Sequence record: NC_073069.1
Length of the DNA stretch: 44,283 bases
Source: Escherichia phage B2
Reading direction: 5' to 3' (one strand)
This document shows positions 4,476 through 41,032 of the stretch, in pieces. The notes below the pieces were generated by a model. It made no database searches and had not been told where the DNA came from. It worked only from the letters and a program-made list of their open reading frames with translations. Every line of letters starts with the position of its first letter. Position 1 is the first letter of the stretch. A program made the position numbers and the translations under genes.

Positions 4476-5167
4476 TTATATGGTCATTATTTGACGGCAG
4501 CGGCTTGATGATTGAGCGTGCTGCCGAGATGGGGCATAAGTGTTATTGCTTCAACTACTCCGAAGCCGATCACGGGTCTTACCTTGATTACCGGATCTAT
4601 GGGCGCGGTATCCGATATCGTAATGAGTTTATCGATCTGGACTTCGTGGACCGCGCGATGAATGGTGATTTCGGCACGCCGGATATCATTTACGCATTCC
4701 CGCCGTGTACGGATCTGGCGGTTAGCGGTGCGCCAGCTTTCCCGCGCAAACGCGCCCGCGACCCTGCCTTCCAGCTTAAGGCAGTGCGCACCGCGAAGAT
4801 AGCCGCTTACCTGGGTGATTTCTTCGAAGTGCCGTATATGATTGAGAATCCGCGCAGCGTGCTCTCCACTCAATGGCGTAAGCCGGACCACTCGTTTGAC
4901 CCGTGGGAGTATGGCGGCTATTTGCCAGAGGATGACGTACACCCGTTATTCCCTGAATACATCAACGCCCGCGATTCATATCCGAAGCTGACCTGCTTAT
5001 GGACCGGCAACGGCTTCCGTATGCCAGAGAAGAAACCTGTTTTCGTTGAAAAAGGGTACTCGAAACAGTATAGTCGCCTCGGTGGTAAATCCGCTCGTAC
5101 AAAATTAATCCGCTCACTCACCCCGCGCGGCTTCGCGATAGCGGTTAACGAGGAAAATTTAAAATGA
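4472..5167 (+). CDS. DNA (cytosine-5)-methyltransferase-like protein, unusually short
   Basis: GTG start overlapping the helicase stop; motif I-like LFDGSGL, PC motif FPPCTDLAVSG, ENV-like MIENP; only 231 aa so no obvious target recognition domain. Confidence 0.5.
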   Translation: MIIWSLFDGSGLMIERAAEMGHKCYCFNYSEADHGSYLDYRIYGRGIRYRNEFIDLDFVDRAMNGDFGTPDIIYAFPPCTDLAVSGAPAFPRKRARDPAFQLKAVRTAKIAAYLGDFFEVPYMIENPRSVLSTQWRKPDHSFDPWEYGGYLPEDDVHPLFPEYINARDSYPKLTCLWTGNGFRMPEKKPVFVEKGYSKQYSRLGGKSARTKLIRSLTPRGFAIAVNEENLK

Positions 5168-5487
5168 ATACTACATTCGACGCCATCGACTTTTCAGTGG
5201 CAATGACCAATCAGCTTTTTTCCTACGACAGCAAGACCGGCGTCATTCGCCTGAAGTCCACAGGCTGCAAGATTGGCAACCTTAACACTGCCGATGGCGG
5301 AACACGTATCGAATACAACGGTAAGACGCTGTCTGGCGCACGCGTGGCGTGGATTATTGAGACAGGCAATACAATCCCCCCAGGCTTCGCCGTTGTGTGC
5401 CGCCAGCGCACGCCAGGGCACTACGGCAACCGGATCAGCAATCTGTATCTGGTAGACGTAGCGCGCGACCCAAACTTTTATGCGTAA
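5164..5487 (+). CDS. HNH_3-like domain protein with substituted catalytic histidines
   Basis: ATGA start/stop overlap; ARVAWIIETGNTIPPGFAVVCRQRTPGHYGNRISNLYLV follows the HNH_3 pattern but has AR and CR where the conserved His residues are expected. Confidence 0.4.
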   Translation: MNTTFDAIDFSVAMTNQLFSYDSKTGVIRLKSTGCKIGNLNTADGGTRIEYNGKTLSGARVAWIIETGNTIPPGFAVVCRQRTPGHYGNRISNLYLVDVARDPNFYA

Positions 5488-10281: not shown

Positions 10282-10305
10282 ATTGGTTGCATTAATGGTT
10301 AAGCA
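10282..10305 (+). promoter_or_regulatory. ATTGGTTGCA motif upstream of the lipoprotein gene
   Basis: attggttgca at 10282-10291, about 55 nt upstream of ATG 10346. Confidence 0.4.
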
Positions 10306-10345
10306 GTGCAATACTAAAACTAAACCAAATATAGGAGATGATACC

Positions 10346-10630
10346 ATGAAAACTTTAATTATGATTTGTGCGGTTCTTTTGTCCGGTTGTGCCGACATGC
10401 CGTCTAAAATCTGCGACGCAACATACATGAATAGTGGTATGGAGTATTCCGTCCCGGTGTTTGGGGTCGCCGACTTTAGCGGACATAAAATGTTACGGGC
10501 GGGATACCCATTCAACTTCCAGTATGTGTCGGTCGACCACTTCAAAAGCACCACCTGCGAATACGCCCCGAAAGGGGCTTTTTATATCCCGTCCACGTTA
10601 ATTGCGGTCAGCGCAACTCCGGTGTTTTGA
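10346..10630 (+). CDS. lipoprotein (candidate receptor-blocking superinfection exclusion protein)
   Basis: aggaga SD then ATG 10346; signal peptide MKTLIMICAVLLSGC with lipobox LSGC; opposite strand to flanking tail genes. Confidence 0.55.
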   Translation: MKTLIMICAVLLSGCADMPSKICDATYMNSGMEYSVPVFGVADFSGHKMLRAGYPFNFQYVSVDHFKSTTCEYAPKGAFYIPSTLIAVSATPVF

Positions 10631-20426: not shown

Positions 20427-20494
20427 TATGCAGTCCCCCTTTTTATGCAGTTGCCGTCGGTCATTGTATCAGCGAATTTAAAACAAACCTTATT

Positions 20495-20816
20495 CAGTCT
20501 CAGACGAGGGGGGCCAATAACCCCCGTCTAGTCTGAAAGACTGGGCTTTGTCCCGCCTGTCCCGATCGGCTAAAACCCGCGGCAGCACTGGCGGGGACAG
20601 GGGTGCTGTCCCGCTTTGTCCCGCCTCATTCTGTCCCGCTTTCTGTCCCGTTTGTTTTATGCAGAAAAACTGAATAGGCATTCACATTTTGGGGCGGGAC
20701 AGATCGGGACAGCACCCCTGTCCCGCTTTTAATTTATGCAATGTAGGTGGGTAAATATGCAGTTTTTAGAGGTGCGGGACGGAACGGGACAAAACGGGAC
20801 GTCCCGCCTGTCCCGT
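20495..20816. repeat. hairpin plus GTCCCGC iteron array, copy A
   Basis: First 70 nt (20495-20564) are 68/70 identical to 37292-37361; about 14 GTCCCG(C) units in both orientations up to 20816. Confidence 0.75.
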
Positions 20817-20820
20817 TCCG

Positions 20821-21146
20821 TTATGCGGGGTTCTGCCGCGCCATCTCATCCAGCGCAACGCGTTCCATTAGCTTGATATCTTTAAACGCACGTTGCGCGT
20901 TTTCGATACCGTGCATCTTAAACAGCCATTCTAAAACACCGTAGTCGATGCCGTATGCACCACCGAATCCGGTGCGCCATTGCGTGGAGCAATCTGTGAA
21001 GACTGCGACTACCTTCGCGTTGTCGGGCCATAGCGCAACGGGAGGACACACGTCTTCAGGTGTCGCACCCCATAAACTCGCGGCTAAATCTTCGGAGGGT
21101 GGCGGCGGGCCATAAAAGCGCCGCGCCGCCTCAATTAGTTTTTTTC
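20821..21146 (-). CDS. tail assembly chaperone -1 frame extension (gpT-like part of a G/GT-type fusion)
   Basis: Frame downstream of the G-like gene stays open in -1 from the slippery site through to 20821. Confidence 0.55.
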
Positions 21147-26390: not shown

Positions 26391-26418
26391 TTGGTTGCAG
26401 TATATTGGTTGCACACCA
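26391..26418 (+). promoter_or_regulatory. tandem TTGGTTGCA motifs upstream of the + strand moron cassette
   Basis: ttggttgcagtatattggttgcacaccaaca; the 18-nt ATTGGTTGCACACCAACA also occurs upstream of the 37075 gene. Confidence 0.45.
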
Positions 26419-26441
26419 ACAGAGATATGAAGGAAGACAAA

Positions 26442-36363: not shown

Positions 36364-36484
36364 TGCTCTGTCTCCTCAATCTCATCGATAGTTTTCGTGT
36401 CGCCATCGCATACGGTGGCGATGCCGTTTTGTTCGTAGTCCCACACGCACATGTGCAGGTCGATTTGTTCCTGCGGGAAGTCGC

Positions 36485-36760
36485 CTAAGAACATTTGCGC
36501 AGTCTCCAGTGTTTGCCTACCCGCTCAACCGCGGGCTTACGGCGTAATGTAATACGGATCCCCATTGGTTGCAAGGAGGTCCGCACATAGAAATCATGTT
36601 GTGCTGCGAACTGGTGCAGATAGCGGGTCTGCGTTAATGGCTTCACATCGTCGCGATAACCCCAGAACACAGAATCGCCCTCATTCGCATTCTTAGCCCA
36701 TATTCGTATGCAATGCAGTGGAATACTCCATGAAAGGCGTTTTGCGTGTCTGCGGTCCAT
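36485..36760 (-). CDS. questionable hypothetical ORF
   Basis: 91 aa, R/W/H-rich, no SD; contains a + strand ATTGGTTGCA motif and hairpins; a 44 aa ORF in another frame (36360..36494) couples to the next gene. Confidence 0.2.
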   Translation of the reverse strand: MDRRHAKRLSWSIPLHCIRIWAKNANEGDSVFWGYRDDVKPLTQTRYLHQFAAQHDFYVRTSLQPMGIRITLRRKPAVERVGKHWRLRKCS

Positions 36761-36769
36761 TTTGGCCCA

Positions 36770-37075
36770 TTATTTCGCAAGCTGGGAGAATAGTTCGCGC
36801 TGGGCTTTAATCCGGGCGACGTTTGTCACTGCCTTATCGCCAATGCCGAAGCGATACGCCAGGCGCTCGCGGGAGAATGCCTGCGCGTATGCGTGGATGG
36901 CATTACGCAACGGACTCAGTTCGTCCATGCTGGCGCCCATACCGTAAAGCGCGCTGCGAAGTGATTGATGCGCCAGTATCGCGACCTGAAGCGCCGAGTC
37001 TACGTTGCCGTTTAGTGCCTTCGCTTCGTCCAGCTTTGCCACGGCCAGGGTGTAATTCCAGATAATCGCTTTCAT
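36770..37075 (-). CDS. hypothetical protein
   Basis: 101 aa with gagga SD; preceded by the 18-nt ATTGGTTGCACACCAACA motif. Confidence 0.45.
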   Translation of the reverse strand: MKAIIWNYTLAVAKLDEAKALNGNVDSALQVAILAHQSLRSALYGMGASMDELSPLRNAIHAYAQAFSRERLAYRFGIGDKAVTNVARIKAQRELFSQLAK

Positions 37076-37096
37076 TGTTCAGTCCTCGTGTTGGTG

Positions 37097-37137
37097 TGCA
37101 ACCAATATAGCAGGGTGCGGGGGTGGGCGCAACCAAT
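37097..37137 (-). promoter_or_regulatory. two ATTGGTTGC motifs upstream of the 37075 gene
   Basis: On the minus strand ATTGGTTGCGC...ATTGGTTGCACACCAACA then SD and ATG. Confidence 0.45.
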
Positions 37138-37291
37138 ATTAATCACGCGCATGAAAAAGTCGATCGCTATCTGCTGCAACTGCAAACTGCATTTCTCACT
37201 CACCATTCTGCAACTCGCATTGGTTGCCTAGTTCAGCGACGACCGCAATTTCCAATATGCTGCCGTGTATTATGCAATCCCGGATTTTATG

Positions 37292-37448
37292 CAGTCTCAG
37301 ACGAGGGGGGCCATTGACCCCCGTCTAGTCTGAAAGACTGGGCTTTGTCCCGCCTGTCCCGCTCCCCGCCAGGCCGCGTCATCCGTGGCGGGACGGGGGT
37401 GCTGTCCCGCTTTGTCCCGCCCCTGGTCTGTCCCGCTTTTTGTCCCGC
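37292..37448. repeat. hairpin plus GTCCCGC iteron array, copy B
   Basis: 37292-37361 is 68/70 identical to 20495-20564; followed by about 7 GTCCCGC units; lies downstream of the primase gene. Confidence 0.75.
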
Positions 37449-37498
37449 TTACTTTATGCAGTTTTATTGCATAACTATGCATTATATTCACACTACAC

Positions 37499-37614
37499 GG
37501 CAACCAATACGACCGACTAAAAGCACGCAAAATGGCAACCAATGCGCGCAGAATTTAATCATTTACCGATATGGGGATCCCCATAACGGCAACCAATGCA
37601 CGCAAAATTTAATC
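37499..37614. repeat. GGCAACCAAT direct repeats flanking a 16-bp perfect palindrome
   Basis: 30-bp repeats at 37531-37560 and 37585-37614 (27/30 identical), a third core copy at 37499-37508, palindrome tatggggatccccata at 37570-37585; overlaps the primase stop. Confidence 0.6.
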
Positions 37615-39861
37615 TTTTAAGTCTTCATCGGTCGCTGAAAGCGTGATAGGGATATCCGATTTGATGACCAAATTAGACGACCCATAGATGGCCCCGGTGT
37701 GCGGATCGGTGTAAAAACCTATCACTCCGCGCTCCACCATATCGTCGATTGCCTTCGTCGAAGTGCCACCTTTCGCGAGTCCCGCCTGGCGGACAATTGC
37801 CGATTTACTGAATCCAGTATGGTCTGGGTTATCTTCCATCAGTTTTTCCAGGGCCGCATAAAGCACTTTCTCTTTTTCGTTGCGCGGTCCGGCGGTGTTC
37901 TCTTCCTTAACTGCGGCCTTTGCCTGTTCAATAGCGAACGGTGCCAGGGCAACCGGTACGAGGTAGAGAGTCTCGTCGCGTGGCGTGGAGGCAATCGGCT
38001 TGACGTCCCATCCGGCAACCACGTCGCCGAAGTCTGGACCGGTGCTGGTGGACTGGTGCGCCTCGAACGCTTCTGACTTGCGGAGATCCACCTTCACCTT
38101 GCACTTGAGCAGGACGAAGCCGCGCGGCGCTTGCTTGATGCCGTTACGTGACTTCTCATGATACAGGTTCAATTGTCCGGGCTGGTTGTCGTCCGGCTGT
38201 TCCAGGAAGAACGCAGAATCGACAGCACCATGCAGCGCGCCGGACCCGCGTGGGGTTCTGCTGCCGTTTGCACCTTTAGCCGGGTGGTGGATGACGCCCG
38301 CACTGCCACCTGTATTTTCCGCGATGGCCTTCAGCGCTTTGACCACTTCACCCATATCGCTGGCATTGTTCTCGTCGAACGGTTTAGCCTCGGCGGACCG
38401 CAACGCAACAGTCTGGTTGAGTGAGTCGAACGCCACCAGGCCAACCGGTTCGCCGTTAGCGGTGCGGTTGATAAAGCTGATAACTTCACGCAAACCGGAC
38501 TTGCTGGTGATATCCCAGCCGCGGGATTGCAGATCGATAATGTGCAGCTTGTCCAGGTCGTGCTCATATTTAATCTGCAATGCTTCTTTACGCTGGTTGG
38601 AGGCCTCACCACCTTCCGCATCGAAATAGAAGCAATGAGACTGGACGACCTTCGCACCGCCAAACGGGATCCCCGCGGCAACCGCGCCCATCTGCCCCAG
38701 CACGTAGAAGGACTTACCGATATTCGACTCACCCGCCATATACCAGGTCGATTTAAAGTTAATCAACCCCTCGATGATCGGGTCGTGCTTACTGAACAGC
38801 GCAACCGGCTCGTTATCTAGGTCCGCATCGGTGCACACGCCGTATTCTTCGCCGTCGCCAACCGCATCAACAATATGTTCATATAAGGACTCGACTTCCT
38901 CGTCGTCCAGACCAGGCAGGATGGCGGCGATTTGTTTACGTGACATGTTGTGCGGCTCGACGTTCAGGTAGTCTGGTATCCCGAGAAGACGTAGCGCCAG
39001 GTGCTGGTGTCTATTTAGCTCCGAGCAACACTCGTTGCCGGTGTGCATACACTTGAAACGGATCTCGCCATCCTTGACCATGATAGCCGTCGACCCTTCG
39101 CCGCTGTGCAGATGTTCGTTCGGGCACGGAACTTCATAACCGCGACCGGACGATAACGGCTCGAATCCGGCCTGAAAGCACCAATCAAGAATGCCGTCAG
39201 CCACTGCGGCGTCGCCCTGGGTAAGCTCGCGGCGTACTTCCTCTTTCTCCACCCCCAGCTTGTCCGCCAGGCGGAGCAGACGCCGCACATTGGCGCGTTT
39301 GCCGTAGTGGCACTTAATAACCGATTGCTGGTGCGGCAGGTACATCAGGCGGTTTGTGTCTTTCGTGCAATCGTCGAAGTCCACATCTGACAGACCAAGT
39401 TGGTGTAATAGCGCATACTGGACACGGCCCAGGTCTTCCGCCGGGACAGGCTTGTCCGTCAACACCAGGAAACGGGCGCAACGCGTGCCGCCTTTCAGTG
39501 GGTGACGGTCGCCGGTTGTGGTGTGGAATACGTGTTCCAGACCCGCGTCGATGAAAGCCTTACGGCAGCGGCGCAAGGTGCGAGTGTCGGTGCGGTCAAT
39601 ATCAAAGAACAGGATCGAGCGGTCCACCGCGCTGGTCTTACGGCGTAGGCCGTCACTGGTATATGCCACGATGCCATCGGCCTTGCGCTTGCGGCGCGCA
39701 TACTCGGCTTTATCCTCGGTCTTGTTGATGTGCACCGATGAGATTTCTTTCGCGTCATTGATAAATTCGAAAAATTCATCAGTTGTCATCTGGAAGTTTT
39801 CCGCCCTGGCTTTTTCGCCTTTTTTAGCGGGTCTTGTTACAGCGAATTTAATTAAGCTCAT
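37609..39861 (-). CDS. primase-polymerase/helicase-like replication protein
   Basis: 750 aa; N-terminal AEP-like ILFFDIDRTD and HTTTGDRH motifs; central Walker A GESNIGKS with RecA/DnaB-like ATPase region; C-terminal region reads as a possible wHTH. Confidence 0.7.
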   Translation of the reverse strand: MSLIKFAVTRPAKKGEKARAENFQMTTDEFFEFINDAKEISSVHINKTEDKAEYARRKRKADGIVAYTSDGLRRKTSAVDRSILFFDIDRTDTRTLRRCRKAFIDAGLEHVFHTTTGDRHPLKGGTRCARFLVLTDKPVPAEDLGRVQYALLHQLGLSDVDFDDCTKDTNRLMYLPHQQSVIKCHYGKRANVRRLLRLADKLGVEKEEVRRELTQGDAAVADGILDWCFQAGFEPLSSGRGYEVPCPNEHLHSGEGSTAIMVKDGEIRFKCMHTGNECCSELNRHQHLALRLLGIPDYLNVEPHNMSRKQIAAILPGLDDEEVESLYEHIVDAVGDGEEYGVCTDADLDNEPVALFSKHDPIIEGLINFKSTWYMAGESNIGKSFYVLGQMGAVAAGIPFGGAKVVQSHCFYFDAEGGEASNQRKEALQIKYEHDLDKLHIIDLQSRGWDITSKSGLREVISFINRTANGEPVGLVAFDSLNQTVALRSAEAKPFDENNASDMGEVVKALKAIAENTGGSAGVIHHPAKGANGSRTPRGSGALHGAVDSAFFLEQPDDNQPGQLNLYHEKSRNGIKQAPRGFVLLKCKVKVDLRKSEAFEAHQSTSTGPDFGDVVAGWDVKPIASTPRDETLYLVPVALAPFAIEQAKAAVKEENTAGPRNEKEKVLYAALEKLMEDNPDHTGFSKSAIVRQAGLAKGGTSTKAIDDMVERGVIGFYTDPHTGAIYGSSNLVIKSDIPITLSATDEDLKD

Positions 39862-39871
39862 TGCCGTTGCC

Positions 39872-40201
39872 TTATTTGGAAGTTTTATTATTGCGTACCC
39901 AGGATCGCACTGTGCTCTGGTTGATTCCGGTTAGCTCGGCGATCATAGCCCATGATTTACCCTCATCACGTAAACGGATAACCTGTTTTTTGTATTCTTC
40001 CATTTCTTCATTGTGCTTTTGCAGCTTGCTTGCTGCCGTACCGTTGAGTAATTCCAGCTTCGCGCGCAATTCTTTTTCGGTAAGTCGCAGACGTTCGATT
40101 TCAAATAGCACCGCACCCACGGCATCGGTATATGCCCAGGACCGGCTTGTCTCACTGCAAACAGTCTTAGTTAACATTTCGATTGCGTCGTCGATATTCA
40201 T
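39872..40201 (-). CDS. small HTH-domain protein (putative regulator)
   Basis: 109 aa with ggaga SD; C-terminal HTH-like SWAMIAELTGINQSTVRSWV; first gene of the leftward block. Confidence 0.45.
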   Translation of the reverse strand: MNIDDAIEMLTKTVCSETSRSWAYTDAVGAVLFEIERLRLTEKELRAKLELLNGTAASKLQKHNEEMEEYKKQVIRLRDEGKSWAMIAELTGINQSTVRSWVRNNKTSK

Positions 40202-40332
40202 TGTTCTGTCTCCGGTTGGTTAATGACCAACGAAACTACACCTAAAACCGCGGGGTGTCAACTCCTTTGGAATATTGAAACGGGCGCGCACGCGTGTAAT
40301 AATACTCCCGTCTCATTGTCTCTTATTGGTTA

Positions 40333-40366
40333 GCGCCGTCGCATTTTGCTTCGGCGCTTTTTTTTT
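40333..40366 (+). terminator. hairpin followed by a 9-T run in the divergent control region
   Basis: gcgccg...cggcgc stem followed by ttttttttt, directly upstream of the -35 of the rightward promoter. Confidence 0.5.
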
Positions 40367-40377
40367 GAAATTAGTTG

Positions 40378-40407
40378 TTGACACCTATCCTGCAACCAAT
40401 CTATTAT
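40378..40407 (+). promoter_or_regulatory. sigma70-like promoter for the rightward early operon
   Basis: TTGACA (40378-40383), 18-nt spacer, TATTAT (40402-40407); the spacer contains tgcaaccaat (40391-40400). Confidence 0.5.
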
Positions 40408-40603
40408 TCACCCCGTCGACAGGATGCAGGACGCAAACTGGAGAGGGGCAACGCAGGGGCCGGATCGAAGTGTCAGGATTCCCAACCGTGATTATATAAC
40501 CAGGTCCACTACCCGAAAGGGAGAACGCGTAACCTGGCAATATGTTAAGGCCACCGACGAAGTTTACTGCCGACACCTAAACTTAACCAATCGGAGATAC
40601 ACC

Positions 40604-41032
40604 ATGTTTGAACAAATCGTAAACCTGATCACTCGCGGCGTAGTAGCACTGGAAATCATCGCTAAACATTATGAAACCGTTGGCGCTGCCGTTGGTAAGC
40701 AGGAAGACAAGAAGCCGTCTAAGGCCAAAAAAGAAGTCGTAGAAGATGACGACGATGAAACCGAAGACGAAAAACCGGCGAAGGGTAAAAAAGCACCTGC
40801 GAAAGGCAAAGGTAAGAAAGATGCCGACCCGCTGGCAGAGATGCGCGACGAGATCAAACAATACGCCGCGATTATCGCAGGTGGTGACGACGACGACGCG
40901 AACGACGAATTTGACGACCTGCTGGAGGCGTTCGAGATCAAATCAATCGCCAAGCTGGAAGATGACGACGTGGAAGATTTCCACAAAGATCTGAAAGAAA
41001 TCGTCGAAACTTATTTCGAATTGGAAGATTAA
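40604..41032 (+). CDS. highly acidic low-complexity protein (first rightward gene)
   Basis: ggaga SD then ATG 40604; 143 aa with D/E runs (EDDDDETEDE, GGDDDDANDEFDD) and a lysine-rich segment; the track ORF from 40424 is an R-rich upstream extension. Confidence 0.5.
   Translation: MFEQIVNLITRGVVALEIIAKHYETVGAAVGKQEDKKPSKAKKEVVEDDDDETEDEKPAKGKKAPAKGKGKKDADPLAEMRDEIKQYAAIIAGGDDDDANDEFDDLLEAFEIKSIAKLEDDDVEDFHKDLKEIVETYFELED

Follow-up and report, generated by a model that had tools for sequence, protein, structure and literature searches.

In the P1 origin oriR, as in other iteron plasmids, DnaA boxes lie on both sides of the RepA iterons. The satellite phage P4 has ori and crr and an alpha primase-helicase with a C-terminal DNA-binding domain. 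T4 origins combine a MotA-dependent middle promoter with an unwinding element, and MotA boxes replace the -35 element; transcription at origins is known from T4 middle promoters and from lambda pR at ori. Arrays of operators, finally, are found as the lambda CI/Cro operators and the Mu Mor/C sites.

The locus analysed here belongs to Escherichia phage B2, whose complete 44,283-bp genome (the window of this study, at its full length) is that of a Dhillonvirus, an HK578-like virulent siphophage of E. coli. The proposed functional core of its repeats is a 9-10-bp box, ATTGGTTGC(C) on the coding (minus) strand, found after the primase-helicase gene. Like P1 oriR, B2 has a short box, distinct from the iterons, in few copies on both flanks of the array by an AT-rich stretch; unlike in P1 oriR, the box is not a DnaA box, is also present in most promoters, and varies in number. 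The likeness to P4 lies in a single primase-helicase with a predicted C-terminal DNA-binding domain and in two separated iteron clusters (37.35-37.45 kb and 20.5-20.8 kb), one near the gene. The B2 primase, however, has no detectable sequence relation to solved structures, its fold search gives generic winged helices and not the P4 domain, and to our knowledge P4 has no counterpart of the B2 boxes. The two-site arrangement resembles P4 ori/crr or SPP1 oriL/oriR, a likeness of layout that does not imply family membership. As in T4, a phage-specific box holds the -35 position of many promoters with a good -10, and one copy, box 3, stands just upstream of the AT-rich stretch at the presumed origin. 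In contrast to T4, the box also occurs reversed inside promoters with a consensus -35, box 3 is paired with a weak -10, the presumed origin has iterons, and no homologues of MotA or AsiA were found. As in operator arrays, one short motif recurs at several promoters, where it overlaps core elements, and a small HTH protein heads the early operon beside a divergent, box-bearing promoter region; unlike operator sites, the B2 boxes appear to be single 9-mers of variable spacing and orientation and not dyads, the phage is virulent, and the HTH candidate is not kept in the other box-bearing genus. The kind of element is familiar, and the motif itself appears undescribed. The literature searched held no transcription, binding or replication data, promoter class, regulatory element or origin for any Dhillonvirus, and searches by sequence string and by topic returned only primers or unrelated papers.

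The boxes lie in a non-coding gap (Table 1), a region matched by 157 phage records at 75-93% identity. As both flanking genes and all neighbours are on the minus strand, the gap is best read on that strand. A sequence-only reading of the window had described two near-identical 30-bp direct repeats, a perfect 16-bp palindrome and a third core upstream, overlapping the primase 3' end, and all of these are present. A repeat search recovered the two copies, identical at 27/30 positions and 54 bp apart; such a repeat within 54 bp is far beyond chance. With the primase-helicase ORF ending at 37609, one copy spans its stop and last sense codon. The other holds a small palindrome, TGCGCGCA, immediately ahead of box 2 and, outside any gene, GATTAAAT, which repeats the final sense codon and the stop of the primase gene and shows that the unit arose by duplication of the end of that gene. 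The 16-bp palindrome begins 24 nt past the primase stop. Taken alone it is not beyond chance (a shuffled genome is expected to hold 0.7 perfect palindromes of at least 16 bp, and one turned up in half of the shuffles); we count it as real because of the relatives, several of which have an 18-22-bp version.

The gap holds six boxes. Three are primase-side, a fourth is reversed, and the other two belong to the promoter of the 101-aa gene, which reads TTGCGC, a 17-bp spacer and TATATT, the last overlapping the second box. Box 3 overlaps TGCCGTGT, the inverted partner of ACACGGCA (37261-37268) on the other side of the iterons, and the reversed box with its flank pairs with box 2 in a perfect 13-bp inverted repeat (37216-37228 / 37534-37546). 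A CDS at 37297..37554 in the GenBank record of CEC_Kaz_2018 was rejected as spurious, with its start within the variable 54-bp unit and 1-bp indels in relatives.

Table 1. Coordinates of the repeats, boxes and neighbouring features in the B2 genome (window positions)
Feature	Position	Strand	Description
Non-coding gap	37076-37608		533 bp, between primase-helicase gene and 101-aa gene
Primase-helicase gene	37609..39861	-	AAA_25 domain, predicted C-terminal winged helix, acidic tail DEDLxD
Primase-helicase stop codon	37609-37611		TAA, inside repeat copy 1
101-aa gene	36770..37075	-	
Repeat copy 1	37585-37614	-	aacggcaaccaatgcacgcaaaatttaatc; minus strand reads GATTAAATTTTGCGTGC-ATTGGTTGCC; box 1 core 37588-37597
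Palindrome	37570-37585		TATGGGGATCCCCATA, perfect 16 bp; imperfect extension to about 37566-37589
Repeat copy 2	37531-37560	-	aatggcaaccaatgcgcgcagaatttaatc; box 2 core 37534-37543
54-bp unit	37533..37586		One repeat copy and palindrome; variable among relatives
Box 3	37489..37512	-	Core 37499-37508 (GGCAACCAAT); minus strand reads ATTGGTTGCCGTGTAGTG
Weak promoter-like site	37474..37503	-	TTGCCG (37503-37498), 18-bp spacer, CATAGT (37479-37474), 8/12
AT-rich stretch	37450..37487		About 24% G+C; convergent TTATGCA boxes
Iteron array	37346..37448	-	GCGGGACA: six direct, one inverted (37388-37394)
Hairpin block	37292..37340	-	cagtctttcagact-agacggggg...cccccctcgtct-gagactg; conserved, loop varies among relatives
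Reversed box	37219..37228	+	Plus strand reads ATTGGTTGCC
Two boxes in 101-aa gene promoter	37098..37137	-	One is the -35, TTGCGC
Second iteron and hairpin module	20450..20830	-	Non-coding gap after tape-measure gene
109-aa protein	39872..40201	-	C-terminal HTH resembling sigma region 4

The sequence-only reading had further placed the minus-strand core ATTGGTTGCC in a family of intergenic motifs, and genome-wide motif counts confirmed this. The exact 10-mer GGCAACCAAT occurs five times, four of them in the 533-bp gap, with about 0.08 expected (random 10-mer, both strands); when one mismatch is allowed there are 20 matches against 3.7 expected, a number that none of 100 shuffles reached. Although non-coding DNA makes up 7.2% of the genome, it holds 17 of the 22 copies of the 8-mer TTGGTTGC (P about 7e-16), and 17 copies stand at the same coordinate in CEC_Kaz_2018. 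Sigma70-like promoter matches overlap 16 of the 22, compared with 12% coverage expected (P about 5e-11), a statistic with some circularity, since the TTGC within the box is already part of a -35.

Two arrangements recur among these promoters. In the first, the box provides the -35 (ATTGG-TTGCAT/TTGCTG/TTGCGC), 17-18 bp from TATATT or TATAGT, frequently with a second box that adjoins or overlaps the -10 (P2551, P5493, P7165, P26377 and P37132). In the second, a near-consensus -35 (TTGACA/T/C) is accompanied by a reversed box, either in the spacer or just past the -10 (P40378, P34037 and P43183). Box position, spacing (12-54 bp) and orientation vary, which argues for the site of a DNA-binding factor and not for a fixed promoter element. 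The pattern is that of a box regulon, the same short sequence standing at several promoters and overlapping core elements. To judge by the base that follows TTGC, the origin-side boxes form a subclass: they read GYATTGGTTGCC, with C in all four, and the promoter boxes read ATTGGTTGCA, with C in 0/10. The DnaA box TTATNCACA (or TTWTNCACA) has no match in the B2 genome, and ATTGGTTGC has only 4/9 positions in common with the DnaA-box consensus.

Several other candidates were tried and rejected. Host-factor sites compared by eye (IHF, CytR GTTGCATT, lambda CII TTGC-N6-TTGC and sigma54) were unfit for the box in spacing or conservation, as was a sigma32 -10, CCCCATNT, in the palindrome. The 8-mer ACGGCAGC, which seemed over-represented in all relatives, is merely frequent in coding sequence (26 copies in B2). 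A switch of box polarity at the origin was also set aside; a two-block partition fits 12/13 clusters, and random orientations do so 15% of the time.

Box-like sequences were also noted elsewhere in the window. Within the 91-aa gene (36485..36760), at 36550-36575, a box is fused to GGGGATCC to give GCAACCAATGGGGATCC, which has the 10-mer ATGGGGATCC in common with the palindrome; this may be chance. At 10283-10346 a box promoter, ATTGG-TTGCAT-17-AATACT, stands ahead of a lipoprotein-like gene (10346..10630, plus strand, signal sequence MKTLIMICAVLLSGC) amid minus-strand tail genes. A palindrome, TTGGT-N5-ACCAAC, lies directly upstream of the Shine-Dalgarno of three genes (starts 37075, about 26442 and 40201; palindromes at 37085-37106, 26405-26425 and 40205-40235), and its equivalent in the metagenomic contig L027 is ACAGCCAACAGGAGA. 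On the plus strand at 40270-40370, just upstream of the strong promoter P40378, a promoter-like TTGAAA-16/17-TAATAAT is followed about 60 nt on by a hairpin, AGCGCCG...CGGCGCT, and a T9 run; this element contains a near-box, ATTGGTTAGC, and may be a short RNA or leader.

Comparison with related phages, which the sequence-only reading had suggested, covered a close set of 18 (14 IMG/VR loci, CEC_Kaz_2018, PTXU06, bob and B2) and the most divergent Dhillonviruses, EE09 (L151) and LM40P1 (L152), at about 75-77% identity. The 54-bp unit, one repeat copy with the palindrome, is missing from 9/18 close genomes. One of these nine, L005, is additionally without box 2 and has a single box left. The number of primase-side boxes runs from 1 to 3 among viable isolates, and box 3 is identical in all genomes compared. 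Where the palindrome is present, its centre is GGATCC, GAATCC, GGATTC or GAATTC, and PTXU06 and EE09 have a perfect 22-bp version (CGATATGGGAATTCCCATATCG); it is missing from 10/20 genomes when EE09 and LM40P1 are added to the close set. Both of these divergent phages keep 6/6 gap boxes with diverged sequence between them. In LM40P1 a 22-bp deletion has removed palindrome sequence and spared the three primase-side boxes; in EE09 a 56-bp deletion has reduced the iteron array to four iterons. This retention where the flanks diverge argues that the boxes, box 3 above all, are under constraint. The palindrome and the box number are not, and one repeat with the palindrome is dispensable.

Two features of the database records were noted during this comparison. 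B2 and MK728541.1 (CEC_Kaz_2018, L002) have the same length of 44,283 bp and the same ORF coordinates; they differ by 3,960 substitutions with no indel, about 85-90% of them at third codon positions (two genes checked), and the GenBank record has 70 N. One of the two records is probably a reference-guided consensus. The records of PTXU06, BMA1, SP1 and 101114B2 are all linearised at about 37180, within the gap, which is probably a convention. Genome termini at that position were considered and rejected, as the PTXU06 junction looks arbitrary and its paper gives no end determination.

The box extends beyond the genus. In Edwardsiella phage eiAU-183 (Eiauvirus), whose primase is 46% identical, GCAACCAA occurs 23 times against 1.2 expected; ten copies are in the non-coding stretch after the primase gene, one is in the last codons of that gene, and others are in promoters with the same geometry, TTGG[TTGCAT]-17-TATAGT. 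In contig L027 the box takes a variant form, (C)AGCCAAC(A), present as an inverted pair within the 3' end of the primase gene, as a single copy among the iterons and as two copies ahead of the next gene. In two further contigs, L023 and L025, no such box was found in the stretches of about 7 kb compared. Because the genera differ in how the boxes at the origin are oriented, the comparison supports no precise geometry. A paired-box scan of public viral contigs was swamped by chance matches and tandem repeats.

The boxes flank, on both sides, a core with the parts of an iteron origin. An iteron array beside an AT-rich stretch is formed by the GCGGGACA array and not by the 30-bp repeats, which differ from the iterons in sequence and lie outside the array. 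The core also includes ACACGGCAGCA, and the AT-rich stretch contains an element, GAATAGTTATGCA, that is kept in distant relatives. L023, L025 and L027 (primases 37-44% identical) have the same order of parts after the primase gene, each with an iteron sequence of its own (TCCGACA, GGGATAA and GGGGATGA, respectively). About 170 bp near-identical to 37300-37460 recur in the second module of B2, which has at least 12 CGGGACA copies, four TTATGCA boxes and, over 20450-20830, no TTGGTTGC box. TTATGCA(A/G)T boxes flank both modules (37270, 37287, 37454 and 37468; 20426, 20443, 20657 and 20734), and TTATGCA boxes are also found in the origin-like regions of L023, L025, L027 and eiAU. Their match to the DnaA consensus TTATNCACA is 7/9 positions in B2 and, by eye, as good as 8/9 in relatives, so they may recruit host DnaA. 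Switches in the GC skew, near 40 kb and near 9 kb, track gene orientation and do not pick out 37.4 kb as an origin.

What might read these sequences can be approached through the neighbouring proteins. In a model built on a 25-sequence alignment (the single-sequence model was too poor), the last ~90 residues of the primase-helicase are predicted to form a winged helix (pLDDT 80-88). Their best structural matches are all winged-helix domains (MarR family, ORC2), at fold-class level with E 0.01-0.2, and the putative recognition helix differs among lineages with different iterons. A homologue search with this C-terminal fragment found nothing, and a PDB sequence search with the primase found nothing significant. 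The protein ends in a conserved acidic (D/E)DLxD before the stop (37612-37632) in nearly all lineages (L018 and L021 end in DLE), a tail reminiscent of the acidic C-terminal tails of T7 that tether replication proteins.

The best-placed candidate for binding the boxes is the 109-aa HTH protein. Its gene is the first of the primase operon, beside a divergent promoter region with a box, and its HTH is conserved as far as HK578, whose protein is otherwise different. No homologue was found in eiAU, though eiAU has the box; a Cro/C1-type HTH protein takes the position of the gene there. An XRE-type HTH homologue of the eiAU/L023/L027 protein was sought in B2 and none was found. Small proteins common to B2 and eiAU, a 107-aa HNH-like protein (5164-5487), a 57-aa zinc-ribbon protein (2611-2784) and DUF6378, do not look like obvious regulators, the common proteins being HNH- or zinc-ribbon-like, and a host factor is equally possible as the binder. 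The product of the gene at 40424 was rejected as a binder since it is highly acidic and unlikely to bind DNA. Its ORF (40424-41032, 202 aa) is probably annotated too long, most homologues being 140-170 aa and beginning at ATG 40604; with that start, the non-coding region 40202-40603 is about 400 bp.

We tentatively favour, with slightly less than even confidence, the reading that the repeats are an accessory array of one to three boxes for a promoter-associated factor, set on the primase-side border of an iteron origin, and that they probably control transcription entering the origin or couple origin use to the transcription programme. On this best reading the array is neither the core origin nor a strong promoter.

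The sequence-only reading had instead proposed leftward promoters, and that the boxes are promoters is the first alternative. Each ATTGG-TTGCCN would then be a -35-type element, possibly activator-dependent, and box 3 would drive leftward transcription that activates or primes the origin or adds to that of the 37075 gene. What stands of this proposal is that the core is common to most sigma70-like promoters: the same box gives the -35 at five or more other places, 17-18 bp from a good -10, eiAU has the same geometry, and all three primase-side boxes face downstream genes. At the repeats themselves, however, -35 and -10 elements at the sigma70 spacing of 16-18 bp were not found. A consensus promoter scan of both strands over 36400-37900 gave 0 sites, and in a relaxed scan boxes 1 and 2 were without a -10 hexamer (TAnnnT) at 16-18 bp. 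Only box 3, with a weak -10, gave a promoter-like site in the relaxed scan, not in the stricter one; it points into the AT-rich stretch and the iterons, and box 3 and its spacing are invariant in all genomes compared. Yet the candidate -10 lies inside GAATAGTTATGCA, which distant relatives keep without the upstream box, so its conservation has another cause, and the boxes that flank the origin are oriented otherwise in eiAU and L027. On balance we regard promoters as an unlikely account of the array.

A second proposal of the sequence-only reading, that the repeats are part of an origin together with the iterons, holds insofar as they border a conserved origin-like element. In its strict form the boxes would be an integral part, as a second iteron set or as loading sites for the primase-helicase or a host initiator, and would be required for initiation. 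Boxes do stand at the primase 3' end and on both flanks of the iteron core in Dhillonvirus, eiAU and L027, the 13-bp inverted repeat brackets the core, the box is the most abundant repeat in the presumed eiAU origin region, and box 3 is invariant. The absence of the 54-bp unit from half of the close set, the single-box genome and the boxless second module, on the other hand, show that boxes 1 and 2 are dispensable and not required in cis for an origin, with box 3 standing outside this argument. L023 and L025 have the same architecture without the box, most boxes are in promoters far from any iteron, and the winged-helix tail of the primase differs between Dhillonvirus and eiAU while the box is the same. 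We consider this account doubtful, and somewhat more so than the promoter one.

The palindrome and repeats could also act as RNA, forming a 3'-end structure, a weak terminator or a stabiliser of the primase operon transcript. The position of the palindrome just past the stop suits this, the minus-strand RNA of 37480-37640 folds better than shuffles (-48.5 versus -38.7 kcal/mol, z = -2.9), and other relatives (L018, L020-L022 and L024) have canonical terminator hairpins right after the primase stop. Against it, a terminator scan gave nothing relevant over 36400-37900 and nothing at 37560-37600, where the hairpin is followed by AAAUGAUUAAAUU and not by a U-tract, and Rfam gave 0 matches at E <= 1 over 36900-37800. 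The palindrome is absent from half of the 20 genomes, and changes at its centre are not strictly compensated; what stays constant is the boxes, and these are also found at promoter positions that are not transcribed. An RNA role is improbable on these grounds. Still less credible is that the repeats are neutral remnants without function, left when the end of the primase gene was duplicated in tandem: GATTAAAT does betray a duplication, and one copy is easily lost between direct repeats, but the boxes are invariant in EE09 and LM40P1 where flanks diverge, the same 9-mer is enriched 20-fold in another genus, and the core is common to promoter sites.

Returning to the accessory array, whose anatomy, conservation, variation among relatives and association with promoters are observed, we infer the following sequence of events. 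Each 30-bp repeat would be an imperfect tandem copy of a unit built around the box, which a DNA-binding factor would recognise by its sequence; the same factor would also have sites that overlap most B2 promoters. Bound at the array, the factor may act on transcription arriving from the primase operon, either blocking it or converting it to a weak box-3-dependent start that would fire into the AT-rich region. It could thereby couple origin firing to the transcription programme, or insulate it from that programme. The iterons would be read by the predicted winged-helix tail of the primase-helicase, and the palindrome and second repeat are dispensable additions that alter box number and spacing.

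A bolder version, which we offer as speculation and think unlikely to hold in full, is that the TTGGTTGC boxes form an undescribed regulon common to Dhillonvirus and Eiauvirus. One factor would repress consensus early promoters that have a reversed box in their spacer, activate those in which the box serves as the -35, and gate the transcript into the AT-rich stretch and iterons of the origin via box 3 and its neighbours, so timing origin firing. If true, transcription would be tied to replication in a MotA-like way, in a siphophage whose two-site iteron origin resembles that of P4.

Among therapeutic and model coliphages Dhillonviruses are common, and the BASEL collection includes them. In B2 a 9-bp box is found at most promoters and on either side of the likely origin, and the proteins named above provide a short list of candidate binders. 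Isolates differ naturally in whether they carry one, two or three boxes and in having or lacking the palindrome, and so offer a ready-made allelic series. If a box factor does tie the timing of transcription to origin use, this would be useful for engineering these phages.
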